Shown in pieces: positions 9,155-44,327 of a DNA stretch of 64,000 nt. Position numbers and translations under genes: made by a program. The notes under the pieces are model-generated. The model was not told the DNA's origin, did not search any database, and saw nothing but the letters and a program-made list of their open reading frames with translations. The stretch covers positions 2,080,001 through 2,144,000 of the forward strand of contig CAXXNF010000002.1 of NCBI GenBank assembly GCA_963666365.2, given 5' to 3'. This DNA is from Syntrophales bacterium (GTDB lineage Bacteria > Desulfobacterota > Syntrophia > Syntrophales > UBA2210). The stretch's first letter is position 1, and every line of letters starts with the position of its first letter.

Positions 9155-9200
9155 GGACAGAGAATATGACCATATCGTCCCTTCGTCGAGGTATACACAC

Positions 9201-10955: not shown

Positions 10956-11032
10956 ACTAACGTACAATTCCCTCTCCCGTGATAAAAGAGGGTCACTGGA
11001 GTGAGGCAAAAGACAAAAAGAGCTGCATTCAC

Positions 11033-11734: not shown

Positions 11735-11869
11735 CACTTCCCTGAAATCAGAACCCCATCAAATATACACCGCCGTGCTTTCCATACAGACAAGCCAATG
11801 GGGAACCACAGCACTACCATCTTCTTCTACATGCAGCGAAACTATGATCAGTCGTAGTCACGACTTCGA

Positions 11870-13649: not shown

Positions 13650-13686
13650 TACAGTACCTGTATCTTTCTTGTACCTTCCTCATTGC

Positions 13687-14436: not shown

Positions 14437-15101
14437 CGCATCAGCTTTCTCTGCGCCTTTATTCCTTCCGGGGTAACCAGCCGTTCCAGCAGCGCCATAA
14501 GTCCGTCCACAATTACCGCCAGAAGCGACACGAGAATGGCGCCGCTCAGAATCATCTCTGGATAGACGCGATCGATTCCCTGCTGAATATACACACCCAA
14601 CCCGCCCGCACCAATATAAACGGCAATGGCGGCGATCCCGATATTCATTACGGCAGCCGTTCTCACTCCGGCAACGATGACCGGCATTGCCAGGGGAATT
14701 TCAACCTCCTTCAGCCGCTGCCATGCGGTCATACCCATACCTCTGGCCGCATCAACAAGCGCAGGGGGTACATTTTTGACAGCCGTATAGGTGTTGCGGA
14801 TTATGGGAAGCTGGCTGTAGAGCACCAGGGCGATAATGGCGGGAACCTTTCCCAGTCCCAGATTCACTATGGAAAGCAGGGGGAGCATCATGCCGAAGAG
14901 TGCAATGGACGGAATGGTCATCAGGATGCTGGCCCCATTGAGGACCCGGCCAGCAATCGCCTCGTGTCCCGTGATAAACAGGCCAAGGGGAACGCCGATG
15001 ACAATGGCGATACAAAGCGCCACGCCCACGATCCATAGATGCTCCAAGGAGAGAAACATCACCTGCGAAAGGTTATCCACAATGAATTGCAGCACACCCA
15101 T
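14433..15101 (-). CDS. Osmoprotectant ABC transporter permease
   Basis: TIPSIALFG, DAARGMGMT, IGAGGLG. Confidence 0.92.
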   Translation of the reverse strand: MGVLQFIVDNLSQVMFLSLEHLWIVGVALCIAIVIGVPLGLFITGHEAIAGRVLNGASILMTIPSIALFGMMLPLLSIVNLGLGKVPAIIALVLYSQLPIIRNTYTAVKNVPPALVDAARGMGMTAWQRLKEVEIPLAMPVIVAGVRTAAVMNIGIAAIAVYIGAGGLGVYIQQGIDRVYPEMILSGAILVSLLAVIVDGLMALLERLVTPEGIKAQRKLMR

Positions 15102-15107
15102 GGACAG

Positions 15108-16250: not shown

Positions 16251-16272
16251 GGAAGGCCCCACTGTCTTGAGG

Positions 16273-16308
16273 AGGGACACTTCCCCTGAAAAAAGGGGAA
16301 GTGTCCCT
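16273..16308. repeat. 15-bp perfect hairpin with the same core as the 4806-4914 repeat
   Basis: AGGGACACTTCCCCT-gaaaaa-AGGGGAAGTGTCCCT. Confidence 0.8.
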
Positions 16309-16312
16309 TGTT

Positions 16313-29056: not shown

Positions 29057-29758
29057 TTATATTCGGGACGACGATTCCCCGGCGCACAAGGAATGGGAAC
29101 TAACAGGCTGGATACATTTCGGAATATCGTTTTGAGGGGAATTCACCAGCGTTGACACCTCGTATGCCTCCATTTCATTCGCCCTATAGGGTCTCAGCAG
29201 TTCGAAAAGCCTCGATTCACAGGTTTGGGCGGGATCGAGCCACTCGTCAAAAAAAGAAGGAGAAATTATGACGGGCATGCGATGGTGAATCGATGCCGTG
29301 AGCGAATTGGAAACGATGGTAATAATGGCACAGGTCATCGTGACAGCCTCCGACACTATCGATGGATCGTATATGGCGGCAAACCCGAAGGGTTTTTTAG
29401 ATTTGAGACGAATAAAGTAGGGGATTTTCGAACCTGCCCCACCTTTCCATTCATAATAACCGTCGGCAACGACAAGACAGCGTCGTTTCCTGAAGGCTTC
29501 TCGGAAACTGAGCTTGCGCGCCACCGTTTCAGCCCTTGCATTGATAATCGGCCTCACCGACTTTCCTTTGCCCGACCAGACAGGCGCCAACCCCCAGTGT
29601 AGAGTCGCCAGTTTTCTGGCATCGGTATGGAGCACCGCCGTAATCATACTTCCCGGAGCAATGTTGTAGCTTTTCCTGTTCTCGAACCCCTTTCCTTCAA
29701 CGGCACACAATTCTTCAATCTCGGCAAGATCGCTTACCATCACAAACCGACCGCACAC
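29057..29758 (-). CDS. SOS response-associated peptidase (SRAP/YedK/HMCES family)
   Basis: GTG-start MCGRF, YNIAPG, WGL, INARAET, GYYEW, IHHRMPVI. Confidence 0.92.
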   Translation of the reverse strand: MCGRFVMVSDLAEIEELCAVEGKGFENRKSYNIAPGSMITAVLHTDARKLATLHWGLAPVWSGKGKSVRPIINARAETVARKLSFREAFRKRRCLVVADGYYEWKGGAGSKIPYFIRLKSKKPFGFAAIYDPSIVSEAVTMTCAIITIVSNSLTASIHHRMPVIISPSFFDEWLDPAQTCESRLFELLRPYRANEMEAYEVSTLVNSPQNDIPKCIQPVSSHSLCAGESSSRI

Positions 29759-29858
29759 AACCTCTCTCCCCTCCATGTTAAAAATAACACATGTCTTTGA
29801 TTATAGTGATAAAGAGGCGATGAACCCTACAGGTATCGCTTCGAATTTCATTCATTAA

Positions 29859-29887
29859 TTGACTTATTGCGTCCAGTATCTTATAAG
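29859..29887 (+). promoter_or_regulatory. Probable sigma70 promoter upstream of usp and the AOR-ADH fusion
   Basis: TTGACT-N17-TATAAG, flanked by CATTCATT and AATGAATG inverted motifs. Confidence 0.5.
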
Positions 29888-30111
29888 AAATGAATGCTCT
29901 AAGGCAACAGGCTTCTTTGCTTTTTTTCCTGGAGTGAAAGAAAAAGTAAACCGTGACAAATAAAAAGTGTAATCGAAGGTTGGTTCCCTGCCTGCACCAT
30001 GCGCACCTGTGGAAATGACGATGATGCGGGATTTAATTATTGCGAAAAAATTTCATATACAAGAAAATAAGGCTGTCTGACATTTTTTTCACCTTAACAA
30101 AGGAGCATCAT

Positions 30112-30546
30112 ATGTTTGAACGAATGCTTTACCCGACTGATTTTTCTGAGTTGTCAGAGAAGGCCCTCCCCTACGTTCTCACGCTGAAAGAGGCGGGAGC
30201 GCACACGATCATCCTGCTGCACGTGATCGACAGCAGCACCCTTGATGCCATGACTCACTATTCCCCTATCGATCTGCTGGAAACCCGGAAGCGGCTCAGA
30301 GATATGGCAGCGCAAAAAATCGAAGCCCTGGCGGCGCAATTTGAAAGCGCCGGGTTTTCGGTAGCAGTCAGAATCGAAGAAGGAATCCCCTTTCGGGAAA
30401 TCCTCCGCGTTGAACAGGAAGAACAGGTGACGAGCATCGTAATGGCATCCCACGGCAGCAGCAACATAAAGGAAATGCTCCTGGGATCGGTTTCCGAACA
30501 GGTGATCAGAAAAGCCAGGACACCGGTGATAGTGATCAAGCGATGA
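30112..30546 (+). CDS. Universal stress protein
   Basis: YPTDFS, LLHVI, MASHG...LLGSVSEQV; RBS AAGGAG. Confidence 0.93.
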   Translation: MFERMLYPTDFSELSEKALPYVLTLKEAGAHTIILLHVIDSSTLDAMTHYSPIDLLETRKRLRDMAAQKIEALAAQFESAGFSVAVRIEEGIPFREILRVEQEEQVTSIVMASHGSSNIKEMLLGSVSEQVIRKARTPVIVIKR

Positions 30547-30645
30547 CATCTCCGGAATAGGGAATATACAAAGCCGTCTACAGCAAAAAAACACTGAAAG
30601 AAATTGCCGGGATCACGGCATGGTTAAAAAGGAGGAAAGAGTATT

Positions 30646-33495
30646 TTGAAGATACTGCGCGTCGATATGTCACAACTGAGGATGCAAATGGAAGATCTGC
30701 CCGAGGAGTGGAAGCTGATCGGGGGAAGAGGCCTGATCGCCAAAATCATGAACAAAGAGGTGCCGCCCGACACCGATCCGCTCGGACCGACAAATAAATT
30801 AATCATTGCCGCGGGACCGCTGGCGGGAACTATGGCGCCGCAAATGGGGCGCATATCGCTGGGATGTAAAAGCCCTCTGACATTGGGTATCAAAAAATCG
30901 AATGTAGGAGGGCCGACGGCGCAGAAGCTCGACAAGCTCGGCATTCGGTCAGTCATCATAGAAGGGGCGCCGCAAAACGGCGATTTGTATATTCTGAAAA
31001 TTTCCAAAGAGGGTGCGGCACTTGAAAAGGCTGATGGCTACAGGGGAATGAAGAATTACGCGCTTGCCGACGCACTGTACAAGAAGTACGGCGACAAGGT
31101 TACTCTGATTACCCTCGGCATCGCCGGAGAAAGAAAGTATAAAGGCGCCTCGATTTCTCTCGGAGACATCTACGGAGACCCCTCGCGGGCCGCAGGAAGA
31201 GGCGGTATCGGCGCCGTCATGGGGGCGAAAGGCCTCAAGGCCGTCGTGATCGACGCGGGCGACGCCGGCCAGGTGCCCCTTGCCGACCCCGCACGTTTCA
31301 GGGATACGGTGAGAAGTTGGGTAAACGTGCTCAAAAAAGACGTGGGCTGCGGCCTCTTTCACACCTTCGGGACGCCGCTGGCGGTTTCAAACCTCAGCAT
31401 GGTGGGAAGCATGCCCGCGAAGGGAAACACCTCGGGCAGACATGAGGAATTCAGAAAGGTCAGCGGCGATGCCATAAAAAACAATGTCTGGGAGCGGGGC
31501 GGCAAGATGCACGGCTGCATGCCGGGCTGCGTGGTCCAGTGTTCGATCATCTACAACGGACCCGATGGAAAACGACTCTGCTCCGCCCTTGAATACGAGG
31601 CTATCGGCCTTTTAGGAACGAATCTCGACATTGTGGACCTCGACGCCATCGCCCGCCTTAAATTTCTCTGCGACGATATCGGCCTCGACCTCATCGAAAT
31701 GGGCGGTTCTCTCGTCGTTTCAATAACCGGCGGCAAACTCAAGATGGGGGATGCCGAAGGGGCGATAAAACTTCTCGAGGAAATCGAAGCCGGAACGGAT
31801 TTCGGCGAAATTCTCGGGAACGGCGCCATAGCCACGGCAAAGGCGCTTTCCGTAAACCGGGTACCCGTGTTCAAGGGTCAGGCAATCCCCGCCCATGACG
31901 GCCGGGCCGCCAAAGGCATCGGCGTCACCTATGCCACCAGCCCCATGGGCGCCGATCACAACGCCGGTCTCACCTATAAGATGCCGGGATCGAAAACGGG
32001 CCAGATCGAAAATTCACTGGCCTTTCAGATCAGAGCGGCGGCCTGCGACACGATCGGCTATTGCCTCAATTCCGTCCCCGGCGGTCAGACGTCGATCTAT
32101 GAATTTTTTGCCGATCTGCTTAATGCCCGCTACGGAATGACACTGGCTGTAGATGACCTCGTTGAAATCGGCAAACAGACGCTGAAGGATGAGAACATCT
32201 TCAACAATAAATCAGAATTCAGTAAAATATGGGCCCCTTATCCCGATTTCTATCGAACGGAACCGCTGCCGCCGACGAACAGGGTCTTTGACGTGGAGGA
32301 CAGCGAAATTGAAGATATATGGAACAGGATTGATGCGTACAAAGAGCGTAAAAAACACTTTGAAGTGAGGATTCCCCACCTGCCCCACATGGTAATGGGC
32401 GAAGGCGTCTTCTCAAAGCTCGGCAGTGAAGCGAAAAGGCTTGGGATGCACAGGGCGCTCTTTCTCTGCGACCCCATTATGAAACAGATCGGCAGGGCCG
32501 ATGAAGCAATCGCCAATCTGAAAAAAAACGGAATCGATGCCGTACTCTTTACCGATATTGAACCGGATCCCCCGATTTGGGAAATAGAACACCTAGGTGA
32601 ACTGTACAAAAAAGAAGCCTGTGACGGCATCATCGCCATGGGTGGCGGCAGTTCAATGGATGCAGCGAAGGCGGTTGCCGTGAGGGTCACCCATCCCGGC
32701 CACATGTCCGAGTACGAAAGCCTTGCCGGCGGCACGGGAAAAATAAAGGACATATTGCCGCCCCTTATCTGCATACCCACTACCTCGGGAACGGGGAGCG
32801 AGGCCAATACCTACTCGGTGATCACCGATACGGAGCGGGGCATCAAGTTCATCATCATGAGTGAAATACTCGTGCCCAAGGTGGCGATCATCGATCCGGA
32901 CGTGACTAGAACGATGCCTCCGGGACTCACCGCCGAAACGGGCATCGACGCACTGGCCCATTGCATAGAGGGCTACGTGGGAACGCTCATGCCCTACCAT
33001 CCCTATTATTCAACGCTGGCCTATTACGGCGTCAAAATGATCGGCTCAAGCCTGCCTCGCGCCTATCATAACCCCGATGACATGCAGGCACGGACGGATA
33101 TGGCCATGGCGGCCATTTACGGCGGCGCCGCCTTTACCAAGGGACTGGGCATCGGACATAACCTCGGCCATGTCATCGGCGCCCGGTATCACATATCCCA
33201 TGGCAAATCGATCGCCCCGGGACTGCTCTGTTTCGCCAGGGCAAATGAGAAGGCCTGCCGGGAGGATTTCGAAGATCTGGCCTGGACTCTTAATCGCTCC
33301 AGGAACCTGGAAGAGGGTCTTCGCACATTATACGAAGAGGTGGGCATGCCCGCCAGATTCAGAGATTTGGGCGTGCCGGAAGAAGACCTGCCACGCATCG
33401 CTTTCGAGGCATCAAAGGACGTGGTCAACATCGCGGGCAATCCCATACCTTTGGAGGAGAAACATTTTTTGTCGCTGCTTAAAGAATTTTACTGA
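30646..33495 (+). CDS. Fusion of an aldehyde:ferredoxin oxidoreductase (W/Mo-bis-pterin) and an iron-containing alcohol dehydrogenase
   Basis: N-part: KSPLT, GRGGIGAVMGAKGLKA, CMPGCVVQC, LEYE, CDDIGLD, DTIGYC. C-part: GGGSSMDAAK, PTTSGTGSE, DALAHCIE, GHNLGH..SHG. TTG start with AGGAGG RBS. Confidence 0.92.
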   Translation: MKILRVDMSQLRMQMEDLPEEWKLIGGRGLIAKIMNKEVPPDTDPLGPTNKLIIAAGPLAGTMAPQMGRISLGCKSPLTLGIKKSNVGGPTAQKLDKLGIRSVIIEGAPQNGDLYILKISKEGAALEKADGYRGMKNYALADALYKKYGDKVTLITLGIAGERKYKGASISLGDIYGDPSRAAGRGGIGAVMGAKGLKAVVIDAGDAGQVPLADPARFRDTVRSWVNVLKKDVGCGLFHTFGTPLAVSNLSMVGSMPAKGNTSGRHEEFRKVSGDAIKNNVWERGGKMHGCMPGCVVQCSIIYNGPDGKRLCSALEYEAIGLLGTNLDIVDLDAIARLKFLCDDIGLDLIEMGGSLVVSITGGKLKMGDAEGAIKLLEEIEAGTDFGEILGNGAIATAKALSVNRVPVFKGQAIPAHDGRAAKGIGVTYATSPMGADHNAGLTYKMPGSKTGQIENSLAFQIRAAACDTIGYCLNSVPGGQTSIYEFFADLLNARYGMTLAVDDLVEIGKQTLKDENIFNNKSEFSKIWAPYPDFYRTEPLPPTNRVFDVEDSEIEDIWNRIDAYKERKKHFEVRIPHLPHMVMGEGVFSKLGSEAKRLGMHRALFLCDPIMKQIGRADEAIANLKKNGIDAVLFTDIEPDPPIWEIEHLGELYKKEACDGIIAMGGGSSMDAAKAVAVRVTHPGHMSEYESLAGGTGKIKDILPPLICIPTTSGTGSEANTYSVITDTERGIKFIIMSEILVPKVAIIDPDVTRTMPPGLTAETGIDALAHCIEGYVGTLMPYHPYYSTLAYYGVKMIGSSLPRAYHNPDDMQARTDMAMAAIYGGAAFTKGLGIGHNLGHVIGARYHISHGKSIAPGLLCFARANEKACREDFEDLAWTLNRSRNLEEGLRTLYEEVGMPARFRDLGVPEEDLPRIAFEASKDVVNIAGNPIPLEEKHFLSLLKEFY

Positions 33496-33541
33496 AAAAT
33501 TTTTATGTAAGCAGAAACTCTTATACCACCGATTCCGACAG

Positions 33542-33572
33542 GGCGCCTTCGATACTTCTATTCGAAGGCGCC
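33542..33572 (+). terminator. Hairpin downstream of the AOR-ADH fusion
   Basis: GGCGCCTTCGA-N9-TCGAAGGCGCC; no U-tract. Confidence 0.4.
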
Positions 33573-33766
33573 GCCGACCCCTCGCTCCCTTTGCGGATAT
33601 ACTTTTTCAGACGCAACATACCTATGTAATGCAAAACGCAGCTCATTGGCGCCCACCTCCCATATTGTGGGGACCCGATAGTGAAAAAGCGTAGGGAATA
33701 GGGTGAGATATGTATAAAAATATCTCCTATTATTCATAAACGCCACTAAAAAAAGGAGGATTTACC

Positions 33767-35440
33767 ATGAAAGGGAGTACTCGAAATTGGAGACTGTCAC
33801 TTATCGGCCTGGCTGTGATCTGGACACTGCTCATGTCGGCTTCGGTTGTTGCACAGGAGGTCGCCGTCACCGACAAGGGGTACAAGGCTGTTCGTCTTGC
33901 CGCTGACACCCCCTTCCCCGGCGCGAACGGGGCTACAATAGGCGCCGACGGCAATCTCTATGTGAGTCACACCGGCAACGGCACAATAACGAAGATAGAT
34001 CTTACGTCAATGAAGGCAACACCCTTCGTCAGTCCCTATCAGGCGGCATTCATTATAGACGATATTGCGGCAGACGATAAGGGAAACATCTATGCTACAG
34101 GGACCACGCCGCTGGTCGGGGAGGTGTACCGTATCGACAAAAACGGAGTGCGCACGATTATCGCCGACGGCATGGCGGCGCCGAACGGGATCGAATACAA
34201 TCCGCGTACGGGGAGACTCTTTGTCACGGAATGCTTCCAGGGAAACCGCGTCTATGAGGTTGATCCTGCCGGCATAAAAAAGGCGCGACTCCTGATCGAC
34301 AAGGACGTGATTCCCGTCCCTGAAGGATTCGACTACGATCCCGATACAAACGATTTGATCATCCCCGACCTGGGAACGGGGAAAATCCTGAGAGTCCATC
34401 CCGATACGGGCGCGATCAGCACCATAACCGACAAGGTTCCCGCCTGCATCGCACTTGCGATAGGTCCGGACAAAATGATTTATGTGCCGGCCCTTTCCGG
34501 TGTGGTGTACCGGGTCAGTCTGGATGGTTCCAAGGTGGAAAAACTTGCCCAGTTGACTCCCGGTCTGGACAACGTGGCGCTCACCAAAGAGGGACGACTC
34601 TTTGTCACCAGTTACTGGGATGCCACAGTCTACGAAGTTGCCACCGACGGAAGCGGCAAATTCACGCAGTTATTCCCTATGGGACCCAATCAGCCTCTCG
34701 GCGTTGTCGTAAAAAAGGGGGCGATCTTTGTTGCCGATGCAATCATGATACGAACCGTTGCGGATGGAAAATATAACCAGACCAAGCTGAACGCCTGGGC
34801 TGCTCACGGCATGCCTCTGACACTGAGCTTGACTGACGGTCCCGGGGATCAGCTTTTCTGGACCGATTGCATTCACGGCGCCGTGGCCATAGGGAATCCT
34901 TCAACAGGAGAGTTCAAACCTGTGGCGGGTGGGCTGGCACGACCAATCGCTGCACTTATGAGCAGTGACGGATCGCAGCTCTTTGTGGCTGAATTTGCCG
35001 CGGGACAGATTACTGCCATCAGTTTAAAGGACGGTGCAAAAAAGGTGCTCGCACAGGACCTCGAAGGCCCTCTCGGACTGGCGCTCATCGATGGCGCCCT
35101 TTATGTGGCAGAAGCAAAATCGGGGCGCATCAGCAAGGTCGATCCCCTTTCGGGAAAGAAAGAAGTGTTTGTTTCATCCATGGTAGGAAAACCGGTTGCT
35201 CTCGCCAATGATGGCGGCGACACGTTGCTCGTGCTCGACGGCGCCGGACAGAGAATCATCAGGATCTGCCCGAAGACCCTGGCAATGACCCTCATCGCAA
35301 AGGACGTTCCCGTGGGATACAGTCCTATCGGAAGCTACCCCTCTGTGGAGTTTCCTTCTGCCATGACGGTATGTGCCAAGGGAAACATCTATTTTACTAC
35401 GGCGGACCGCGGCCTCATTAAACTTGAAAAAATCAAATAA
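33767..35440 (+). CDS. Secreted tandem beta-propeller protein (SMP-30/gluconolactonase/NHL-like)
   Basis: Sec signal (..SVVA-QE); repeated blades such as GANG..IGADGNLYVS, APNGIEY..GRLFVT, PEGFDY, LDNVAL..GRLFVT, PLGLAL..ALYVAE. Confidence 0.8.
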   Translation: MKGSTRNWRLSLIGLAVIWTLLMSASVVAQEVAVTDKGYKAVRLAADTPFPGANGATIGADGNLYVSHTGNGTITKIDLTSMKATPFVSPYQAAFIIDDIAADDKGNIYATGTTPLVGEVYRIDKNGVRTIIADGMAAPNGIEYNPRTGRLFVTECFQGNRVYEVDPAGIKKARLLIDKDVIPVPEGFDYDPDTNDLIIPDLGTGKILRVHPDTGAISTITDKVPACIALAIGPDKMIYVPALSGVVYRVSLDGSKVEKLAQLTPGLDNVALTKEGRLFVTSYWDATVYEVATDGSGKFTQLFPMGPNQPLGVVVKKGAIFVADAIMIRTVADGKYNQTKLNAWAAHGMPLTLSLTDGPGDQLFWTDCIHGAVAIGNPSTGEFKPVAGGLARPIAALMSSDGSQLFVAEFAAGQITAISLKDGAKKVLAQDLEGPLGLALIDGALYVAEAKSGRISKVDPLSGKKEVFVSSMVGKPVALANDGGDTLLVLDGAGQRIIRICPKTLAMTLIAKDVPVGYSPIGSYPSVEFPSAMTVCAKGNIYFTTADRGLIKLEKIK

Positions 35441-35456
35441 TGACGCCCTTCAAAGG

Positions 35457-35490
35457 CGAATGCTCCCTGCCTTTCGGGCAGGGAGCATTC
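35457..35490. terminator. Strong hairpin between convergent genes
   Basis: CGAATGCTCCCTGCC-loop-GGCAGGGAGCATTCG. Confidence 0.65.
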
Positions 35491-35520
35491 GTGTGTTCAC
35501 AAAGATGTTCATGCCGCGTT

Positions 35521-36039
35521 TTACACATCACTGAAGCTGATATCGGTTTCACCTCTTGGAAGCGGTATGATATACACAGGTTTACGCGTTCTCCGCAATA
35601 CCCGTTCCGCCACGCTGCCCAGAAAGGTATTTGCAATCGAGCCCTTGCTGTGCGTGCCCATGACGATGACATCGCAGTTGCGCTCATCGGCCGTTCGCAA
35701 TATAACCTCCGCCGGATACCCCTCTTCGACGATAATTTCGTCCTCCCGTCCGACGGCATCGGGGTCGTCGGCAAGTTCTTTTTCCCTGATCACATTCCAG
35801 CGTTCCCTGAGCTTCTCCAGGCTCTGCTGAATATTTAGTTCGGCAAATTTCTGTTTGTCCTTTTCGCTCACATAGAGATCCATCCAGACCCGCGCATTCT
35901 GAGGCAACGGTTCGATGACATGAAGCGTCACCACTTCCGCATCATGCTTCTGCGCCGTGTTGATTGCATAGCGAAAGGCATAGGCCGAATTTCTGGAAAG
36001 ATCCGTCGCATAAAGAATCTTCTTTATTCGTGGTATCAT
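35521..36039 (-). CDS. Universal stress protein
   Basis: KILYATDLS, LHVIE, GYPAEVIL, VMGTHSKG..FLGSVAERV; start ATG 36039 with AGGAGG RBS. Confidence 0.92.
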   Translation of the reverse strand: MIPRIKKILYATDLSRNSAYAFRYAINTAQKHDAEVVTLHVIEPLPQNARVWMDLYVSEKDKQKFAELNIQQSLEKLRERWNVIREKELADDPDAVGREDEIIVEEGYPAEVILRTADERNCDVIVMGTHSKGSIANTFLGSVAERVLRRTRKPVYIIPLPRGETDISFSDV

Positions 36040-36118
36040 GGTGTATCCTCCTTTTTTTGTCGATTCATCTGACTGCCGCGTTTCCTTCAGGGGGCTTACA
36101 GGATTGACGCGCACCCCC

Positions 36119-36679
36119 TTATTTGAGCCATGGCTTGCCCGCAGGAACCACGTCTCTTCCGAACACCTCGCCCAGGATAATATGGGCCATGGTATACCAT
36201 GCCGCCAGGGCACAGATCATCAGTTCATATCCGGCCACCTTGGTCAGTCCAGGAAAACCGAAATGTGCGAAATCAAGAAGGATAAATCCCACCAAGAGGA
36301 GGGTAAAGGTCCAGGCAAGGGCGCCGTTGATGCGCATGGCGCCAATCCACATTATGGCCGTGTACACCGTAAATCCGATGAGAAACCACCCCACATCGGT
36401 CGTGCTCGCCTTATAAATCCCGAAGTGGTTGCCCAGGAGGATAAGCGCCAGGGCAATCCAGAAGCATCCGTAGGTGGTAAATGCGCTGTATCCGAAATTG
36501 TTGCCTGTTTTCATTTCCTGAAGCCCGGCAATCATCTGTGCAATACCGCCGAAAATCAATCCCAGCGCCACAACCGGACCTGCGCCGCACCAGCCCACAT
36601 TGTGAAACTGCAAAATTAATGTCGTCATGCCAAATCCGGCCAGCCCAACCACTGCGGGGTTTCCCATTTTCTGCTCCAT
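36119..36679 (-). CDS. satP: Acetate/succinate uptake channel (GPR1/FUN34/YaaH family)
   Basis: NPAVVGLAGFG, FGGIAQMIAG..E, AFTTYGCFW. Confidence 0.9.
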   Translation of the reverse strand: MEQKMGNPAVVGLAGFGMTTLILQFHNVGWCGAGPVVALGLIFGGIAQMIAGLQEMKTGNNFGYSAFTTYGCFWIALALILLGNHFGIYKASTTDVGWFLIGFTVYTAIMWIGAMRINGALAWTFTLLLVGFILLDFAHFGFPGLTKVAGYELMICALAAWYTMAHIILGEVFGRDVVPAGKPWLK

Positions 36680-36789: not shown

Positions 36790-38313
36790 CTACCCTTTTT
36801 GCCTCAGCTCGCGCTTCAGGATCTTCCCCACGGAACTCTTCGGCAGTTCATCCAAAAACACCACCGACTTGGGCGCTTTAAAACGGGATACTTCCTTTAT
36901 GCAATGATCCATCAATTCCTGTTCCGAAACGTGCGCGCCCGGGCGGAGAACCACAAAGGCCTTCACCTCTTCTCCATACACGGCATCGGGTACACCCACC
37001 ACGGCCGCCTCCATGACGGCCTCATGGCTGTAAAGTATTTCTTCGATTGCCCCGGGGGAAATATTTTCACCACCCCGAATAATCAGGTCTTTTTTTCTGT
37101 CGGTGATAAAGAGATCGCCGTCCTCATCGAGACATCCCATGTCGCCCGTATGCATCCATCCATGCAGCAATGCCGCCTCCGTTTCCTGCGGCTTGTTGAG
37201 ATAGCCCTTCATGACATTCGGTCCCCTGACACAAATTTCACCTTCTTCCCCAGCAGGAACTTCCTCATCACGATCGTTGAATATCTTCACTTCTACGTTT
37301 CGAATGGCGGAACCGACCGATCCGGGCTTCTTCGGTCTTCCGACAGCCTGTCGTGTAATAGTGGGGGACGTTTCCGTCATCCCGTACCCCTCGTAAAGCG
37401 TGCCCCCGAGCGTCTCTTCCACCATGCGCAGCGTTTCCAGACTGAGCGGCGCCGCTGCGCTTATCCATCGGCGGATAGATCCGAGATCATGCACTGTCGT
37501 ATCATAATGCTGCAACAGCATAATATACATGGTGGGAACGCCGACAAACTGCGTTACCTTGTGGGTGGTAATGCTTCTCAGCGCCAGTTTGGGATCGAAT
37601 CCCTTGTGGATGATCAGAGTGGCGCCGGTAATGTTGCACTCGTTTATCATCAACATGCCGTAGATGTGATTCAAAGGAAGAGGAACCAGATAGACATCGC
37701 TTTCGTCGGTCGGCCAGGATGGCAGCCCATCCTCCAGATTTGATCCGATGTTTCTATGGCTGAGCATCACGCCCTTGGGAAAACCGGTCGTTCCCGACGT
37801 ATACATCAGCACCGCCGTATCGTCCGGGTCCATGACGGCCATTTCATAGTCAACGGAGTGTTCGGCAAGAAGCGAATCAAAAGAAAGGGTCCCCGGAACT
37901 GCCTTTTTGTCAGCGATAATAATATGTTCTATCGTCTTGAGCCCCTTCGCGGCCTCCTGTATTTTCGGATAGAGTTCCTCATTGGTGATGATGGCGACGG
38001 CCTTCGAATCTTCCAGGATATATCGTATTTCAGGGGCGGTGAGACCAAAAATGACGGGCAGGAACACGGCGCCCCTCTTGAATATGCCGATAAAAGACAC
38101 GGGAACTGCGGGACCGTTGGGTAAGATCACCGCGACAATATCCCCTCTTCTTACGCCCAGACCGGCCAGGCCGTTGGCGAGCGCATTGGAACGATTTTTC
38201 AGCTCCACGTTGGTAAAACGTTCTTCATGATCCTGCTCTTCATACACAAGAATTTCATACTCTCCAAACTTTTTGATGCTTTCCAGCCCGTAGTGCGCGT
38301 AATTCCAGTTCAT
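36790..38313 (-). CDS. Acyl-CoA synthetase (long-chain fatty acid-CoA ligase-like)
   Basis: YTSGTTGFPKG, EGYGMTETSP, HTGD, DRKKDLIIRGGEN, PKSSVGKIL. Confidence 0.93.
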   Translation of the reverse strand: MNWNYAHYGLESIKKFGEYEILVYEEQDHEERFTNVELKNRSNALANGLAGLGVRRGDIVAVILPNGPAVPVSFIGIFKRGAVFLPVIFGLTAPEIRYILEDSKAVAIITNEELYPKIQEAAKGLKTIEHIIIADKKAVPGTLSFDSLLAEHSVDYEMAVMDPDDTAVLMYTSGTTGFPKGVMLSHRNIGSNLEDGLPSWPTDESDVYLVPLPLNHIYGMLMINECNITGATLIIHKGFDPKLALRSITTHKVTQFVGVPTMYIMLLQHYDTTVHDLGSIRRWISAAAPLSLETLRMVEETLGGTLYEGYGMTETSPTITRQAVGRPKKPGSVGSAIRNVEVKIFNDRDEEVPAGEEGEICVRGPNVMKGYLNKPQETEAALLHGWMHTGDMGCLDEDGDLFITDRKKDLIIRGGENISPGAIEEILYSHEAVMEAAVVGVPDAVYGEEVKAFVVLRPGAHVSEQELMDHCIKEVSRFKAPKSVVFLDELPKSSVGKILKRELRQKG

Positions 38314-38350
38314 ACTCCTCTCCCTCACTTGCATATCAATTAGTAGTGAT

Positions 38351-39931
38351 CTATCTTTTCTCCCAGAGCGCCCGTTTTAATTCGCTCTTCAGCACCTTCC
38401 CCGTTCCCCCTTTGGGAAGGGTTTCCCTGAACTCGATGAGACGGGGAATCTTAAATCCGGCAAGCCCCTCTTCTCTGCAATAGGCAATCAACTCTTCGGA
38501 GGTAAGCTCGGCGCCCTCCGCAAGGACAATGAAAGCCGCCGGCGTCTCCCCCCATTTTTCCGAAGGCGCCGCCACTACGGCTACTTCCGCAACCGCAGGA
38601 TGTGAGGAGATGACATTTTCCACTTCCACCGATCCGATGTTCTCTCCCCCGCTGATAATGATATCCTTTTTTCTATCCACGATCGTAATATACCCATCTT
38701 CGCTGATCGTAGCGATATCGCCGGAATAGAGCCATCCATCGACAACGGTCTTCTTCGTTTCCTCGGGAAGCCCCCAGTAACCGTCAATGATGGTATTGCC
38801 GCGCATGATTATCTCACCCATCTGGATGCCGTCGTGTGTGACATCCTTTCCTACGCCGTCGACGACCCTCACCGACGTTACCATATCTTCGTACCCCTGC
38901 GACCGGAGGAGAACCCGTTTCTTTTCTTCAGGCAGGTCCCGCAGGTGCTCTTTCAGGTGCGCCGTGGTGCCGCAGGATGACGTCTCACTCATTCCATAAC
39001 CGGCATGAATCACGCACCAGGGAAATTTCCGCATTAACGCGTCCTGCGTCCCCTCGAGAAGGGGGGCGCCTCCGATTACAATGCGTTCAAGGCTGCTCAA
39101 ATCATACTTGTCCAGATCCTTGAACTGAGTCAGCGTATCGCACATGGTGGGCACCATCTCCACATAGTTCACCTGTTCCCGCTCAATCAATTCACAGATC
39201 AGGGCCGGACGAAACTGAGGCAGCATGACATGCCTGCCTCCGACCGCGGTAATCATGTGCGCCTTTCTCCAGCAATTCGCATGAAAGAGGGGAATGGCTT
39301 GAAGATACACGGTCCGATCGTTTGCCACGCCGAAAAAAAGATCTTTCGTCGCCGCAAGCCAGAGGGTCCGGTGCGTGAGCAACATTCCCTTTGGATTCCC
39401 TGAGGTTCCGCTGGTATAAAACATCTCTGCGGGATCATGCTCATCCAGACCGAAATCGGCATCCATCACCGGTGACGCCTGTCCAAGCAATGTCTCATAT
39501 CGTTCCCCCTGAATCGTATGGTCAGGCGTCGTTTCTCCTTCAAGCACGACATATTGTTCCACAGTGTTCAGCTGCTCCCTCGGGACGAGATCCACCATGT
39601 CCTCGTTGACGACGAGCAGCCGCGTCCCTGAATCATTTAGCACATAGGTGATTTCCCGGGGAGTAAGCCGTATATTGATCGGCAGGAGAATCGCACCGAT
39701 CTGCGGCACACCGAAGTGCAGCTCAAGGAGGCGATGGCTGTTGGTATCGATCACGGCCACGCGGTCCCCTTTTTTAATACCCATTTTTATCAAGGCATTG
39801 GAAAGACGATTGACCCGCTCGCCGAACCGGGCATAGGTAAACCGTTTGTCTCCGTCGACAACACCTGTTTTCTTTCCATACTGTTGTACCGCTTTTCGCA
39901 AGAAATCGGTGGCTAAAAGGGGAACATACAT
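38351..39931 (-). CDS. Acyl-CoA synthetase (AMP-forming, medium-chain/aromatic type)
   Basis: YTSGTSGNPKG, PLFHAN, GYGMSET, SGD, DRKKDIIISGGEN. Confidence 0.93.
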   Translation of the reverse strand: MYVPLLATDFLRKAVQQYGKKTGVVDGDKRFTYARFGERVNRLSNALIKMGIKKGDRVAVIDTNSHRLLELHFGVPQIGAILLPINIRLTPREITYVLNDSGTRLLVVNEDMVDLVPREQLNTVEQYVVLEGETTPDHTIQGERYETLLGQASPVMDADFGLDEHDPAEMFYTSGTSGNPKGMLLTHRTLWLAATKDLFFGVANDRTVYLQAIPLFHANCWRKAHMITAVGGRHVMLPQFRPALICELIEREQVNYVEMVPTMCDTLTQFKDLDKYDLSSLERIVIGGAPLLEGTQDALMRKFPWCVIHAGYGMSETSSCGTTAHLKEHLRDLPEEKKRVLLRSQGYEDMVTSVRVVDGVGKDVTHDGIQMGEIIMRGNTIIDGYWGLPEETKKTVVDGWLYSGDIATISEDGYITIVDRKKDIIISGGENIGSVEVENVISSHPAVAEVAVVAAPSEKWGETPAAFIVLAEGAELTSEELIAYCREEGLAGFKIPRLIEFRETLPKGGTGKVLKSELKRALWEKR

Positions 39932-39958
39932 CTTTTCATCCTCCCGTCACAGGGCGGC

Positions 39959-41284
39959 CTAACCGCCGAAGATTAATCTCGGTATCCACAGGGATATCTG
40001 CGGAAACAGGGACACAAGTATCAGGCCCACTGCCTGAAGAAGCACAAAAGGCACGATCGCCAGGTATATGTCCTTGATACCCACCCCTGCCGGGGCAATG
40101 CTCTTCAGGTAAAAGAGATTGTAACCGAAGGGTGGAGATATGTAGGCAATCTGCATATTCATGATGAAGATCACGCCGAACCACACGGGATCATATCCCA
40201 TCACATCCACGACGGGCATAATGATCGGCGCCGTGATCATCACGATGGCGCCCGGATCGAGGAGCATGCCCAGAGCGAAGAACATGATCTGAATCAGGAT
40301 GAAGACGCCCCAGTACCCGAAGGGCAGACCAGTCAAGAGGTTTCTGATGAAATCGGAGGCGCCCAGTGCCGTATAAATAGTGGCAAAACTGTAGGCGCCG
40401 ATGATGATCCACATGACCATTCCCGTAAGCCGCAACGTCCCCAGGGACACGCGCTTGAAAGAGCCCCAGTTCATCGTTCCGCTGAAGAGCATGAGCACAA
40501 GACTGCCGAAAGCGCCGATGGCCGATCCTTCCGTGGGGGTGCAGACGCCCCCGAAAATAGATCCCAGGACGACAAGGATGAGAATGATCGGGGGAATCAC
40601 TGTTTTGGTGGCCCGCATCTTCTGTATGAGGGACATCGTATCCCCTTCTTCATCTACCTTGCTCGGACCTAGTTCCGGTTTAATTTTGCAGGCAATCAAT
40701 ATGTAGGCAATGTACAGCAGCGCCAGAAGGATGCCCGGACCGATGCCGCCGGCAAAAAGCTGTCCCACCGAAACCTGGCAGATCATACCGTAGATAATCA
40801 TGACGATACTCGGCGGGATAAGAATTCCCAGCGCCCCGCCGGCGCCGATGCACCCGAGGGCAAGCCGTGTGTTATAGTTGCGGGAAAGCATCGCCGGAAG
40901 CGCAATGAGCCCCATGGTAATCGTACCGGCGCCTCCGATGCCCGTCATGGCGGCAAAGAGGGTACAGACAATGACTGCTGCCACGGCCAGCCCTCCGTTG
41001 ATGCGTCCACCCCATACATGCACTGCGGAGAAGAGCCGATCGGCCATGCCCGATTCCTGGAGCGCCGCCCCCATAAGAATAAACAGGGGAATGGCCAGCA
41101 GACCGAAGGACATCATGGCCTTGCCGAAAATAAGCGTGGGAATGACCCCAAGGGCGTAGGGACCCCAGAGGAATATCGTAAAGAGCACACCGATGGAACC
41201 GAGAATAAAGGCGATGGGGAGCCCCGATATCAAGCCAAGGACCATACAGGCAAAGAGCAGAAAGGTAATAGTGCTTATATCCAT
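39959..41284 (-). CDS. dctM: TRAP transporter large permease
   Basis: LLAIPLFILMG, LGILIPPS, TPTEG, ISPPFG. Confidence 0.95.
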   Translation of the reverse strand: MDISTITFLLFACMVLGLISGLPIAFILGSIGVLFTIFLWGPYALGVIPTLIFGKAMMSFGLLAIPLFILMGAALQESGMADRLFSAVHVWGGRINGGLAVAAVIVCTLFAAMTGIGGAGTITMGLIALPAMLSRNYNTRLALGCIGAGGALGILIPPSIVMIIYGMICQVSVGQLFAGGIGPGILLALLYIAYILIACKIKPELGPSKVDEEGDTMSLIQKMRATKTVIPPIILILVVLGSIFGGVCTPTEGSAIGAFGSLVLMLFSGTMNWGSFKRVSLGTLRLTGMVMWIIIGAYSFATIYTALGASDFIRNLLTGLPFGYWGVFILIQIMFFALGMLLDPGAIVMITAPIIMPVVDVMGYDPVWFGVIFIMNMQIAYISPPFGYNLFYLKSIAPAGVGIKDIYLAIVPFVLLQAVGLILVSLFPQISLWIPRLIFGG

Positions 41285-41790
41285 TATTCATCCACTCCTT
41301 TCCCCGTGACAGCCATATACAGATCGGCCAGGAAATTGCTGATCCCCTGAAGGAGCAGCAACAGGGCGCCGAGAGGGATGGTGAGCTTTACCGGCCAGAG
41401 TGGCGGCGCCCAGTCACTTTGGGATACTTCAAGCACTTTCACGGAGCGGAGCGCAAATTCCCAGCCAAGCCAAAGGATAATCACCGCAAAGAGCAGAAAA
41501 AAAGGAAATGTTATGAGATCAAGTATCGCTTTCCCGCGGGGAGGAAGATGCATATAAAAAAGATCCATATTCACGTGTGCCTTGTAACGCAACGTATAGG
41601 CGCCCCCCATAATCGTCAACGCCGCAAACACCATAATACTCAATTCGTGAGCCCAGACAGTGGGATGGTTGAAGATGTTCCTCAGCACAATTTCCCACAT
41701 GATAATTGCCATCAGTATCCAGGGGAGCCACATAAGAATCATGCCGCTCACCTCGCTGATGCTATTAAGGATATTGATTATTTTTCGCAT
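41284..41790 (-). CDS. dctQ: TRAP transporter small permease
   Basis: EIVLRNIFNHPTVWAHE, HVNMD; 4 TM helices. Confidence 0.93.
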   Translation of the reverse strand: MRKIINILNSISEVSGMILMWLPWILMAIIMWEIVLRNIFNHPTVWAHELSIMVFAALTIMGGAYTLRYKAHVNMDLFYMHLPPRGKAILDLITFPFFLLFAVIILWLGWEFALRSVKVLEVSQSDWAPPLWPVKLTIPLGALLLLLQGISNFLADLYMAVTGKGVDE

Positions 41791-41944
41791 TGAGTCCCCC
41801 TTCTTGCCTCCAGGAGATAATTGCCGTAACAGCCGGTTTATTCCGTACAGGTCCCCTGATTCATCACGCGCCTCCTGACGGGATGGGAGGCGCCCTTCTG
41901 CAAAGCGGGGGGATGACCCGTTGTCATCCCCCCTTTCTGTGTCC

Positions 41945-43006
41945 CTATTTGATGTCGCCCATTGCTCTCAGATACTCTTTGATCATTTTGATAAGCTCGC
42001 CGCACTCGGGAGTCTTTTTCGCTTCCTCGTCCCAAATCTGGAATGCCACTTCTTCCGCCTTTTCGAGATCGGCGCCCTTCAGTGCGTTAATCGTCACACC
42101 GGCTTTTTTCATCTGGTTCAGACCCCACTGCTCGCCGGTCCAGTTCTGGTGATTCGTCATGTCCAGACCCGCTCGTACAATGGCCTGTTCAAGGATTACC
42201 TTGAGGTCGTCAGGCAGTGATTTCCAGGCCCGTTCGTTGACCAGAACGGTAAGATGATTGATCGGATTGACCGGGGGCCAGAGGAAGTACTTGGCAACTT
42301 CATGGAATTTCATGCTGTACATGCCCATGGCGCTTCCCCAGGTAATGCCGTCAATGGCGTTCGTCTGAAGCGCGCTGTAGGCTTCCTCACCGGGGATATA
42401 CACGCCCTGGCCGCCGAGCCTTTCTATCCAGGTAATCATCAGACCGGAGGCCCGGACCTTTTTACCCTTCAAATCGGCAATGCTGTTAATGGGAGAGGTA
42501 AACATGTAGGCAGCGGGCCAGCAGTCAACCCCGCCGGCCAGATAATGGACCCCATGCTTCGCGTAGACCTTTCTCAAAAGATCGATGGCACGCCAACCGC
42601 CGAAGAGATTGGGCAGTTCCTTGCCGTACATGAAGTTATACATCTGGGAGGGCGTTCGAATGCCGAAGGGAACTCCGTATTCAATGCCCGCTTCCGGAAT
42701 CACGCCCTTGAAGTAGATGCAGGGCATGCCGATCATTTCAACGATCCCCGCTTTGACCGCATCAAGGGAATCGGCGCTTTTCACCAGCTCGCCAGCCCAG
42801 AACATCTTGATCTGAAGCCGTCCCTTTGTCATGGCGGGCAGCGTCTTCTCGAACATCTCCTGATAATAGGCCATGCCCGGTTCAGAGGCAATCCGCATCT
42901 GCTGATATTTCCACTTAAACACCTTATCCGCCGCATTGCAGGCAAATGAAGTACTCAACAGCACCGCAACGGCCAGAACCACAATCCCCACTACCTTCTT
43001 TTTCAT
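41945..43006 (-). CDS. dctP: TRAP transporter substrate-binding protein
   Basis: Signal peptide, AGELV, DLKGKKVR, EAYSALQT..IDG, WKSLPDDLK. Confidence 0.93.
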   Translation of the reverse strand: MKKKVVGIVVLAVAVLLSTSFACNAADKVFKWKYQQMRIASEPGMAYYQEMFEKTLPAMTKGRLQIKMFWAGELVKSADSLDAVKAGIVEMIGMPCIYFKGVIPEAGIEYGVPFGIRTPSQMYNFMYGKELPNLFGGWRAIDLLRKVYAKHGVHYLAGGVDCWPAAYMFTSPINSIADLKGKKVRASGLMITWIERLGGQGVYIPGEEAYSALQTNAIDGITWGSAMGMYSMKFHEVAKYFLWPPVNPINHLTVLVNERAWKSLPDDLKVILEQAIVRAGLDMTNHQNWTGEQWGLNQMKKAGVTINALKGADLEKAEEVAFQIWDEEAKKTPECGELIKMIKEYLRAMGDIK

Positions 43007-43106
43007 AACATCCTCCTTCCTTTTGAGTAAAATCTCTTACCAAAAATAGTGATTCAATCGCCCGGATCACACGGTGTGTACCGCGATTCGCCGGATCAGA
43101 TCCGAA

Positions 43107-44327
43107 TCAGACCTCACCGCATCCCGCTACCCCCGACACACAGAGCGTCATGGAAAGCAACGCCTTCAACTCCTTAATTTCCTTAATTTTACTGCGGTAT
43201 TCTCCTTTTTCAAGAAAGAGCCATCGAAATGCCAGATAGGTAAAGGCCCCGGCAAACATAAAACAAAACACCCTGGCGTTTACACTTTTCCGTATGGACC
43301 CCTCCTTTTTGCCGTCTTCAATAATAGTTTTGAGAATGGAATAGTAGCGTTCGAAATACTGAAATGTAGTTGATTGATAAAATTTTCTATTTAATTGCAT
43401 GTGGGCGAGAAAGATTTTAAAGAAGTCACGCTCCATCAAAGCAAGACAACAATGGGAATTGGCAAACTGCCTGAACCTGCTCCAGGCCGTTATAGACCGA
43501 CTGTCCCCGGATAGATCCTGAATCAGCGACTCAAAATGGGCAACAGGAATCGAAAAAAGGAGGTTTTCTTTGCTCTCGAAGTAGTCATACACCGTCCCTT
43601 CGGATACGCGTGACGATTTTGCTATCTCGGTCACCTTGGCATTCAGATACCCTTTTTCGGCAAAAATCCTCTCAGCTTCCTTGAGAATACGGATGGGCTT
43701 TTCAAGTTCTTCCCCCCCGGAGGGAACCAGCATGGGAGAAATGAGGCCCATGATATCCTCCAGATCGTCGGTCCCCTTTTTCCGATAGCCCGACACCCAT
43801 GAATTGATCGCCTCCGAATCGAGAGTTCCCAGTATTATGTCGCGCATAATCGAGGGATTGAGGTCGGAGCGGAACTTTCCCTGATCGATGCCGTCTTTCA
43901 GTATCGCACGCAGCATCCCGGAATAGGCGCGGATGAGACGATAGGCGGGGGCATCGTAAAACTCCCGCAACACTCTGCATTCAAGCAACTGAATGCTCAG
44001 CCAGGCAGGATGGGTGTCGTTATTGTAGAGGTGAAACCATATGACCTTTCTGAGACGGCTTTCCGGATCCTGTATGCCCTGAAGATGCTCGTTCAGACCG
44101 GCAAGAAATTCTTCAAGTCTTTTCTCTGCAGTGCAGAACAGAATATCCTGCTTGCCCTTGAAATACTGGTAGATGACGGAGTCGGCAATGCCGACGGCGC
44201 CGGCAATTTCAGAAATCTTTGTATCTGCAAGCCCTTTGCGCGAGATAATGTCTTCCGCAACGAGAAGAATCTCTTCCCGGCGGTTACGCTCTTGATTTTC
44301 TCTAGGCGACGCGTGCAGTTCGTCCAC
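43107..44327 (-). CDS. Tandem (double) TetR/AcrR-family transcriptional regulator
   Basis: Two HTHs: ISEIAGAVGIADSVIYQYFKGK and VTEIAKSSRVSEGTVYDYFESK; 406 aa. Confidence 0.88.
   Translation of the reverse strand: MDELHASPRENQERNRREEILLVAEDIISRKGLADTKISEIAGAVGIADSVIYQYFKGKQDILFCTAEKRLEEFLAGLNEHLQGIQDPESRLRKVIWFHLYNNDTHPAWLSIQLLECRVLREFYDAPAYRLIRAYSGMLRAILKDGIDQGKFRSDLNPSIMRDIILGTLDSEAINSWVSGYRKKGTDDLEDIMGLISPMLVPSGGEELEKPIRILKEAERIFAEKGYLNAKVTEIAKSSRVSEGTVYDYFESKENLLFSIPVAHFESLIQDLSGDSRSITAWSRFRQFANSHCCLALMERDFFKIFLAHMQLNRKFYQSTTFQYFERYYSILKTIIEDGKKEGSIRKSVNARVFCFMFAGAFTYLAFRWLFLEKGEYRSKIKEIKELKALLSMTLCVSGVAGCGEV

Follow-up and report, generated by a model that had tools for sequence, protein, structure and literature searches.

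Ethanol oxidation through two separate enzymes, an NAD-dependent alcohol dehydrogenase (ADH) and an aldehyde:ferredoxin oxidoreductase (AOR), is established in Pelobacter (PMC4275255), and the reduction of acids by AOR plus ADH is described in reviews (PMC12096430, PMC6365974). According to PMC9295118, no enzyme type other than AOR is known to reduce carboxylic acids that have not been activated, and engineering work pairs AOR with ADH to build biofuel routes from acids to alcohols (PMC12096430). Here we analyze a 64,000-nucleotide (nt) stretch of DNA from a Syntrophales bacterium (contig CAXXNF010000002.1, positions 2,080,001 to 2,144,000; hereafter the window), in which one gene joins an AOR to an iron-containing alcohol dehydrogenase (Fe-ADH) in a single polypeptide. 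This fused AOR-ADH protein is probably a natural single-chain form of the AOR plus ADH route, built on an uncharacterized AOR clade, and seemingly unstudied.

A single-chain AOR and iron ADH protein

The reading frame of the fused gene, 30646-33495 on the forward strand of the window, contains no internal stop and encodes a product of 949 amino acids (aa). An earlier note on this DNA, made from its letters alone, had described one continuous frame with an AOR followed by an Fe-ADH, and Pfam returns exactly this order: AFOR_N, AFOR_C, Fe-ADH and ADH_Fe_C. All of the motifs that it named are present (CMPGCVVQC, DTIGYC, EYE, DxxGLD, GGGS, PTTSGTGSE and the D..H, H, H metal ligands), and the junction that it placed near 32350-32390 is observed at 32329-32385. 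By its sequence, the protein is a short AOR followed by a linker of approximately 15 residues and a complete Fe-ADH. Stand-alone short AORs stop at the linker region and the ADH fold starts at approximately residue 581; within the linker, W572, E573 and R575 are conserved at 98-100% among fused homologues. AOR domains 2 and 3 hold the pterin motifs, E318, H438 and C473, the GGGS and PTTSGTGSE motifs are located in the Fe-ADH nucleotide-binding domain (residues 581-751), and the metal ligands D768, H772, H838 and H852 lie in ADH_Fe_C. The start codon is TTG, with AGGAGG 10 nt before it. The Met start of the homologues aligns with this TTG, and because they begin at the equivalent residue we favor it over an ATG at codon 8.

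Two neighboring genes joined through an assembly or sequencing error would give the same appearance, and one relative seems at first to point that way: genome G022 has its two halves split between contigs, with separate NCBI protein entries for a 'partial' AOR and an ADH. Both pieces, however, reach contig ends, and for this reason we read G022 as an assembly break and not as a split gene. A search of 5.8 billion clustered proteins (8000 candidates scored, 2390 with E ≤ 0.001) revealed the same four-domain architecture in 120/120 of the best relatives examined. These come from many independent sources, are 59-100% identical to the fused protein and are approximately 949 aa long (range 885-1005 aa, the lone 885-aa entry carrying the label partial); the homologues are thus not all split genes, one of the outcomes that the earlier note had said would count against it. 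In contigs from three further studies the junction is free of stops and frameshifts. An identical 29.7-kb contig from run X1, probably the source itself, spans all of 30400-33700; contigs from runs X3 (32149-32572, zero differences) and X5 (30403-32528) bridge the junction, and those from run X6 tile it. Across these four runs the only reported indels are at 30601-30607, in the upstream spacer, and none falls inside the fused gene. With the linker residues conserved as well, an artefact is excluded for practical purposes, and we assign it a negligible probability.

The earlier note knew of no characterized example, and our literature search likewise found no paper describing a natural AOR-ADH fusion (subscription journals lay outside its coverage). 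The main text of a recent classification paper (PMC13328260) makes no mention of an AOR-ADH fusion, and three of its small supplementary files contain zero Fe-ADH InterPro or Pfam accessions. The named relatives are all proteins from metagenomes or metagenome-assembled genomes (Deltaproteobacteria, 'delta proteobacterium MLS_D', Dehalococcoidia and Chloroflexota), and carry no annotation beyond 'iron-containing alcohol dehydrogenase', 'aldehyde:ferredoxin oxidoreductase' or hypothetical.

Residue conservation was counted over 119 aligned fused homologues, down to 59% identity. Section 5 of PMC13328260 defines WorL by AFOR_N (IPR013983/PF02730) plus AFOR_C (IPR001203/PF01314), and gives a conserved active-site set of Thr243, Glu313, Tyr427 and His448 in the numbering of the Pyrococcus furiosus enzyme (PfAOR). 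The fused protein scores above the cut-offs of both domains (AFOR_N 201 bits vs 29.8, AFOR_C 168.7 bits vs 27) and aligns to the P. furiosus structure 1AOR with an E value of 8e-62, residues 3-543 falling on chain residues 8-562 of 605. It carries four cysteines for one [4Fe-4S] cluster (C291, C295, C299 and C473) and the pterin motifs DDIGLD and DTIGYC. Invariant positions in the AOR half include C291/C295/C299, D468, C473, E316-Y317-E318 and D343/G346/D348, with His438 and Glu318 corresponding to Pf His448 and Glu313; Thr243 is nearly invariant (90% or more).

The ADH half is equally constrained in its motifs, GGGS (666-669), PTTSGTGSE (711-719) and the D768/H772/H838/H852 ligands being invariant. 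Both Fe-ADH domains, the GGGS motif, the Asp/His/His/His ligand set and alignment to solved ADHs identify it as a group III Fe-ADH. An Asp follows the second strand, as in the aligned NAD-dependent members, and we take this residue to be meaningful for NAD dependence. In agreement with the earlier note, the protein is not an AdhE: it has no match to PF00171, the CoA-acylating aldehyde dehydrogenase (ALDH) domain, and it reaches 198 bits against the AdhE model NF010378, with a cut-off of 951, matching profile positions 480-748 only, in the ADH half.

The short-AOR clade and its alcohol dehydrogenase partners

Searching 1.84 billion representatives with the AOR half returned 6803 matches at E ≤ 0.001, of which the best 150 were examined. 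These include the fusion representatives P0123 (950 aa) and partial P0122 and P0145, a 568-aa protein with 52% identity to the AOR half (P0124), and approximately 90 proteins of 557-594 aa with 33-46% identity. On sequence grounds, we place the AOR half in a separate 'short AOR' clade with a length of approximately 570 aa. Its members share with the fused half a one-residue insertion in the cluster motif (C-x3-C-x3-C-S vs the canonical C-x2-C-x3-C), a loop after the catalytic His that is shorter than in canonical AORs, and an end at approximately residue 562, so that the C-terminal YYxxRGW tail of canonical AORs is missing. The C-x2-C-x3-C spacing is found in 4/4 canonical outgroups and C-x3-C-x3-C in the short-AOR rows shown in the alignment; among the other short-clade rows of the tree alignment, C295 is retained in 97/97 and C291 and C299 in 92/97 each.

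The source genome (4.0 Mb, 94% complete) encodes three further AORs of 608-625 aa, all canonical, with AFOR_C scores of 364-401 bits vs 169 for the fused one and 25-29% identity to its AOR half. We considered whether the protein arose by recent joining of the ADH/AOR pair in this genome and rejected this, the two halves being only 25-31% identical to its other AORs and ADHs. Comparison with the Protein Data Bank (PDB) using Foldseek returned 1AOR as the best match for the AOR (template modelling (TM) score 0.85 on the target), no solved structure that belongs to the short-AOR clade, and no chain covering both halves (best TM 0.55 on the query).

Fused orthologues are present in 10 of 41 genomes, a set made up of the source genome and 40 relatives. 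They are full-length in eight (source genome, G001, G009, G020, G016, G004, G019 and G025) and incomplete in G022, at the contig ends described above, and in G037. The G037 copy (L114:5706-8261, reverse strand) ends at a TGA after approximately residue 803 and is missing most of ADH_Fe_C. Because homology stops at this TGA in all frames, we consider the copy truncated, either decaying or rearranged; reading the in-frame TGA as selenocysteine was rejected on the same observation.

Association with an ADH extends to short AORs that are not fused. An adjacent same-strand Fe-ADH gene was found at 5 of the 14 stand-alone short-AOR genes examined, which occupy 13 loci of the relatives. The order is ADH then AOR at L109a, L111, L125 and L127; at L110 it is AOR then ADH, with frames overlapping by 29 nt, a zinc-dependent ADH (Zn-ADH) gene upstream and a universal stress protein (Usp) gene downstream. 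As L111, L125 and L127 come from one genus, the five cases represent three lineages. Further short AORs are fused to an Fe-ADH in P0162 (977 aa), P0209 (949 aa) and the partial P0199. Rarely, a short AOR is instead fused to an unrelated, medium-chain Zn-ADH (ADH_N + ADH_zinc_N). This form was seen in 2 of the 120 proteins listed, P0292 (951 aa, with all four domains) and P0262 (628 aa, partial), on two JGI contigs only.

We constructed an AOR tree of 110 rows: the query, 6 clade members, 6 short AORs of relatives, the 3 canonical AORs of the source genome and 94 of the 150 representatives, those with a match of at least 500 residues, 56 shorter ones having been dropped. This was a quick LG+G4 tree, and the fused group was set by architecture before the tree was seen. 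The short clade is separated from the 4 canonical outgroups with 100% SH-aLRT support, and the 12 fused rows fall at three places within the tree. Forcing a single fused clade costs 406 log-likelihood units (approximately unbiased (AU) test, p = 2.3e-7), and a single origin is therefore rejected. The fused rows also need three changes in a 90-row tree of the ADH half, one placement carrying a long-branch warning. While these trees do not separate fusion gains from losses, repeated fusion is the simplest reading because both halves are placed separately and because there is a second, non-homologous ADH partner. The same two observations suggest that shared alcohol/aldehyde chemistry, and not a structural accident, drives the association.

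Canonical AORs are found beside Fe-ADHs as well. In the source genome a canonical 423-aa Fe-ADH gene lies 11 nt upstream of the canonical 608-aa AOR gene (Table 1), and adjacent canonical AOR and Fe-ADH genes occur in Bacillota (L013), Oligoflexia (L016) and Aerophobetes (L025); at a Mediterraneibacter locus (L069) the two genes are approximately 600 nt apart. These last four loci came from a genome scan that had seemed to yield further loci spanning both halves, all of which we rejected: L013, L016 and L025 are gene pairs, L069 is gapped and L029 holds tandem ADHs. The 80 loci kept from that scan, nearly all stand-alone Fe-ADHs at 30-39% identity, do not constitute a taxonomic census.

The searches also returned AOR genes in other settings. 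In P0265 (832 aa) a canonical AOR (AFOR_C 459 bits) is fused to a PF00215 domain resembling orotidine monophosphate (OMP) decarboxylase and hexulose-phosphate synthase, and could link the oxidation of an aldehyde (formaldehyde?) with the ribulose monophosphate pathway. Locus L109 of relative G021 (4995-12350, reverse strand) carries two short-AOR paralogues, one behind an Fe-ADH gene and the second adjoining a sigma-54/PAS activator and a tripartite ATP-independent periplasmic (TRAP) transporter (DctPQM); it looks like a regulated uptake-and-oxidation locus. At L115 of relative G029 (approximately 5001-6734, forward strand), the genome search revealed a short-AOR gene with one in-frame TAG.

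Proposed reaction and predicted docking of the halves

We consider it likely that the fused gene encodes a bifunctional, CoA-independent alcohol/aldehyde/acid oxidoreductase that carries out two consecutive half-reactions on one protein. Its activities, metal, electron carrier, substrate and direction, and any channelling, are what we infer from the features described here. The C-terminal Fe-ADH half would interconvert alcohol + NAD+ and aldehyde + NADH at its Fe site, and the N-terminal AOR half would interconvert aldehyde + H2O + 2 oxidized ferredoxin and acid + 2 reduced ferredoxin at a pterin site whose cofactor is of the pterin type and probably contains tungsten. Electrons would leave through the single [4Fe-4S] cluster of the AOR half to a separate ferredoxin-like carrier. 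With the halves docked, the reactive aldehyde would be both made and consumed on one protein, and its retention on the enzyme would limit toxicity. Oxidation of the alcohol, probably a short-chain alcohol or a diol, would yield NADH and reduced ferredoxin, and in the reverse direction an acid would be reduced to an alcohol. The standard potentials of the acetaldehyde/ethanol and acetate/acetaldehyde couples are approximately -197 mV and -580 mV; each half-reaction would therefore pull the other in either direction.

An AlphaFold2 model computed on the 119-row alignment has a mean predicted local distance difference test score (pLDDT) of 93.2 and a predicted TM score (pTM) of 0.90, the sole dip, to approximately 72, being at residues 571-580. 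Folding the halves as two chains gave ipSAE values of 0.80, 0.72 and 0.79 vs 0.00 for the best of 3 controls, with at least 86% of contacts in common between runs and a partner pLDDT of at least 90. The ipSAE mark applied is reached by 116/157 solved complexes and by 2/215 mismatched pairs, a calibration that is rough here as our own alignment was used. The halves are thus predicted to dock, and because the PDB comparison gave no solved complex of this kind, it is unlikely that the predictor simply reproduced a known structure. In the model, the contact patch comprises residues 230-241, 248-253, 270-282 and 444 on the AOR side, where it flanks Thr243, and residues 688-694, 728-733, 780-783 and 920-935 on the ADH side, where it takes in a loop 8-11 residues past the ligands D768 and H772. 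The cluster loop 291-299 lies outside the patch and so would stay accessible to a ferredoxin. The model offers no more than a lead that the faces of the two active sites meet.

Several observations weigh against a bifunctional enzyme of this kind. The contact residues, which had been expected to be extra-conserved, are instead less conserved than average (0.62 vs 0.78 on the AOR side, 0.64 vs 0.74 on the ADH side), and random residue sets are at least as conserved in 99.9% (AOR) and 98% (ADH) of draws; this comparison takes in buried residues and is weak either way. The position of Pf Tyr427 is His417 in 9/9 rows of the query clade; it is Tyr in 81/97 other short AORs and His in 2/4 canonical AORs compared. 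No NCBIfam equivalog exceeds its cut-off for the fused protein: 4-hydroxybutyrate dehydrogenase scores 256 bits against 500, the choline dehydrogenase GbsB 255 against 550, the lactaldehyde reductase FucO 222 against 523 and EutG 190 against 556, the highest being ErcA at 260 against 550. The truncated copy in G037 lacks the His metal ligands, and a gene for a ferredoxin or another carrier was not found beside the fused gene, at its own locus or at the orthologous loci examined.

Some of these points would fit a protein in which one half is non-catalytic, the Fe-ADH half having a structural or regulatory role comparable to that of ErcA, or the AOR half having a substrate that is not what the ADH half makes. 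Among NCBIfam models the ADH half scores highest against the regulatory ErcA, though far under its cut-off; the AOR half is divergent by its AFOR_C score and belongs to a clade without a characterized member; and the relative with the truncated copy has lost the end of its ADH half. Yet the NAD-binding, metal-binding and AOR catalytic and cofactor residues are invariant in the 119 homologues, and the same AOR clade is fused to, or sits beside, two unrelated kinds of ADH, which argues for shared chemistry rather than a fold-specific structural role. We consider a non-catalytic half quite improbable.

The earlier note's idea of an AdhE analogue gains indirect support from the recurrent ADH partnership and the predicted docking. 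A bolder proposal is that the short-AOR clade is specialized for physical partnership with ADHs, the fused sites sharing a closed channelling path. On this view the fused protein would be a CoA-independent counterpart of AdhE, with which anaerobes could turn alcohols into acids while capturing one electron pair at the potential of ferredoxin, or reduce acids to alcohols with no need for activation by ATP. Such a counterpart would have arisen in at least three independent events with iron ADHs and in one with a zinc ADH. We hold this version to be doubtful and put it forward as tentative.

Gene neighborhood and comparison with known systems

The features of the locus, together with the canonical ADH-AOR pair of the source genome, are collected in Table 1.

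Table 1. Coordinates of the fused gene, its domains and sites, neighboring genes and the canonical gene pair (window positions unless stated)
Feature	Coordinates	Strand	Evidence or remark
Fused AOR-ADH gene	30646..33495	+	Single uninterrupted open reading frame, 949 codons plus stop
Shine-Dalgarno-like AGGAGG	30630..30635	+	Direct sequence reading
AFOR_N, residues 2-203	30649..31254	+	PF02730, 2e-59, 201 bits; aligned to 1AOR
AOR domains 2 and 3, residues 225-542	31318..32271	+	PF01314, 3e-49, 168.7 bits, profile positions 6-345 of 385
[4Fe-4S] motif CMPGCVVQC (C291, C295, C299)	31516..31542	+	Invariant in 119 fused homologues
Junction/linker, residues ~562-580	32329..32385	+	Alignment of fused vs stand-alone forms
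Fe-ADH nucleotide-binding domain, residues 581-751	32386..32898	+	PF00465, 3e-49, 167 bits; aligned to 8zwd, 4fr2, 8zrl
Fe-ADH C-terminal helical domain ADH_Fe_C, residues 762-948	32929..33489	+	PF25137, 5e-37, 128 bits
Usp gene	30040..30546	+	Pfam Usp, 2e-29; 100 nt upstream of fused gene
Second Usp gene, convergent with fused gene	35521..36213	-	Pfam Usp, 3e-33
NHL/SGL beta-propeller gene	33767..35440	+	Pfam; absent from orthologous loci examined
Canonical ADH-AOR pair	source genome C1:1174493-1177602; L093:6493-9602	+	Order opposite to fusion

The neighbors of the fused gene in the window encode Usp, an NHL propeller, SRAP and a polyprenyl synthetase. The upstream Usp gene is a possible co-transcribed partner: a same-strand Usp gene lies directly upstream in 5/7 loci with upstream DNA (source genome, G001, G009, G020 and G019, all of one taxonomic family), with G016 and G025 lacking it. 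A convergent Usp gene follows downstream at three loci (source genome, G001 and G019). The NHL propeller is probably outside the unit, because it is not conserved next to the orthologues. Scanning 29700-36300 for promoters and terminators gave results near chance (6 vs 5.4 expected; 12 vs 7.1 expected). Rfam returned zero matches in the whole window, with no molybdenum or tungsten cofactor (Moco/Wco) riboswitch at the gathering threshold. MoaC, which acts in pterin cofactor synthesis, is encoded within the window (53359-53841, reverse strand).

This neighborhood bears on a different function, aldehyde detoxification or dismutation, in which one toxic aldehyde would be the substrate of both halves in parallel, the AOR forming the acid and the ADH the alcohol. 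The gene would be induced with the neighboring stress genes, and the enzyme would have no role as a catabolic alcohol-to-acid route. Usp genes flank the fused gene in one family and a Usp gene follows the split AOR-ADH pair at L110, but outside that family the linkage was seen only at L110, and it may reflect no more than synteny. In Pelobacter, growth is supported by the disproportionation of acetaldehyde into ethanol and acetate (PMC4275255), and WOR enzymes of gut bacteria have been proposed as aldehyde detoxifiers (PMC13328260); dismutation, however, depends on electron transfer from reduced ferredoxin to NAD+, and no RnfD was found in the 94%-complete genome. No alcohol-specific catabolic genes, transporters or regulators are conserved beside the fused gene at the orthologous loci examined, which favors this function, while at the level of sequence nothing separates parallel from sequential action. 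We judge detoxification or dismutation rather unlikely and retain the sequential, bifunctional oxidoreductase as the preferred reading.

The loci examined also hold no gene for a WorS- or WorN-type subunit, or for a 4x[4Fe-4S] or FAD subunit, beside the fused gene. The AOR half is a single WorL carrying one [4Fe-4S] cluster, with WorS, WorN and WorABC absent beside it, and so corresponds to a Class I WOR. The Class I scheme of Putumbaka et al. 2026 (PMC13328260) does not foresee the appended ADH domain seen here.

The earlier note had considered that the fusion would suit a syntrophic anaerobe. That setting is not established: searches of the 94%-complete source genome found no dsrA, no RnfD and no [FeFe] hydrogenase, and revealed one [NiFe] hydrogenase. 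An AdhE scoring over the cut-off was not found in this genome either.

The source genome does contain a second fusion, of a non-acylating ALDH and an Fe-ADH, at C1:244131-246929 (reverse strand; L094:6131-8929). The ALDH half of this 932-aa protein scores 519 bits against PF00171, its best NCBIfam match is betaine-aldehyde dehydrogenase (493 bits, below cut-off), and its gene adjoins a divergent sigma-54 activator gene. Halomonas BdhE (9ldl), a solved ALDH-ADH fusion, may be its known counterpart. The genome thus has two different fusions of an aldehyde oxidizer with an Fe-ADH and no true AdhE.

Elsewhere in the window, a block at 36790-44327 (reverse strand), approximately 3 kb downstream of the fused gene, comprises two acyl-CoA synthetase genes, a TRAP transporter (DctPQM) and a double TetR regulator, and suggests organic-acid uptake and activation; it is not conserved beside the orthologues examined. 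An alpha-acetolactate decarboxylase gene (acetoin formation) is located at 4019-4804 (forward strand), and a glycine-betaine ABC transporter of the OpuA type at 12738-16667 (reverse strand).

We regard as new the short-AOR clade and its hallmarks, the tally of ADH genes next to short AORs, the fusion with a zinc ADH, the linkage to Usp, and the interface test with the weak conservation that it revealed. The fused protein would give a first functional handle on a large AOR clade that is widespread in sediment and subsurface genomes of the Deltaproteobacteria type and of Chloroflexota. As a natural single chain with a fixed interface, it would offer a ready-made design for acid-to-alcohol cascades and a test case for aldehyde channelling without CoA. 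Given the present single-domain annotations of fused genes, it would also alter the conclusions drawn from metagenomes on the turnover of alcohols and acids.

Compared with described proteins, the ADH half resembles group III ADHs, with TM scores of 0.90-0.92 on the target and approximately 31-34% identity, the members compared being Bacillus methanolicus Mdh (8zwd, 8zrl), the 1,3-propanediol dehydrogenase DhaT (3bfj, 4fr2) and FucO (1rrm). It shares with them the GGGS and metal-ligand motifs and the Asp after the second strand; it differs in being fused behind an AOR and in having no equivalog model over cut-off. The AOR half resembles P. furiosus AOR and the Class I WORs in its fold (TM 0.85, 31% identity), its four cluster cysteines, both pterin motifs, the equivalents of Thr243, Glu313 and His448, and the absence of an adjacent WorS or WorN. 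Unlike P. furiosus AOR, it has the C-x3-C-x3-C spacing, a shorter post-His loop and His in place of Pf Tyr427; it lacks the C-terminal tail of approximately 40 residues (YYxxRGW) and has a 370-residue ADH added.

AdhE likewise combines an N-terminal aldehyde-oxidizing module with an Fe-ADH, places a reactive aldehyde between two sites, and has an ADH half homologous to the one described here (AdhE structures, 1e-37 to 1e-45). In AdhE, however, the first module is a CoA-acylating ALDH, whereas here it is a pterin/[4Fe-4S] AOR, and the product would be a free acid rather than acyl-CoA, with one electron pair passing to ferredoxin rather than to NAD+. A further parallel is the two-enzyme AOR plus ADH route of Pelobacter (PMC4275255) and of P. 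furiosus, Thermoanaerobacter and acetogens (PMC12096430, PMC6365974, PMC10816221), which employs both protein families. The reactions are presumably the same ones, the ADH working with NAD(H) and the AOR with a low-potential carrier. What distinguishes the fused protein from that route is that the two activities would reside in one polypeptide, with a predicted fixed interface and a divergent short AOR.

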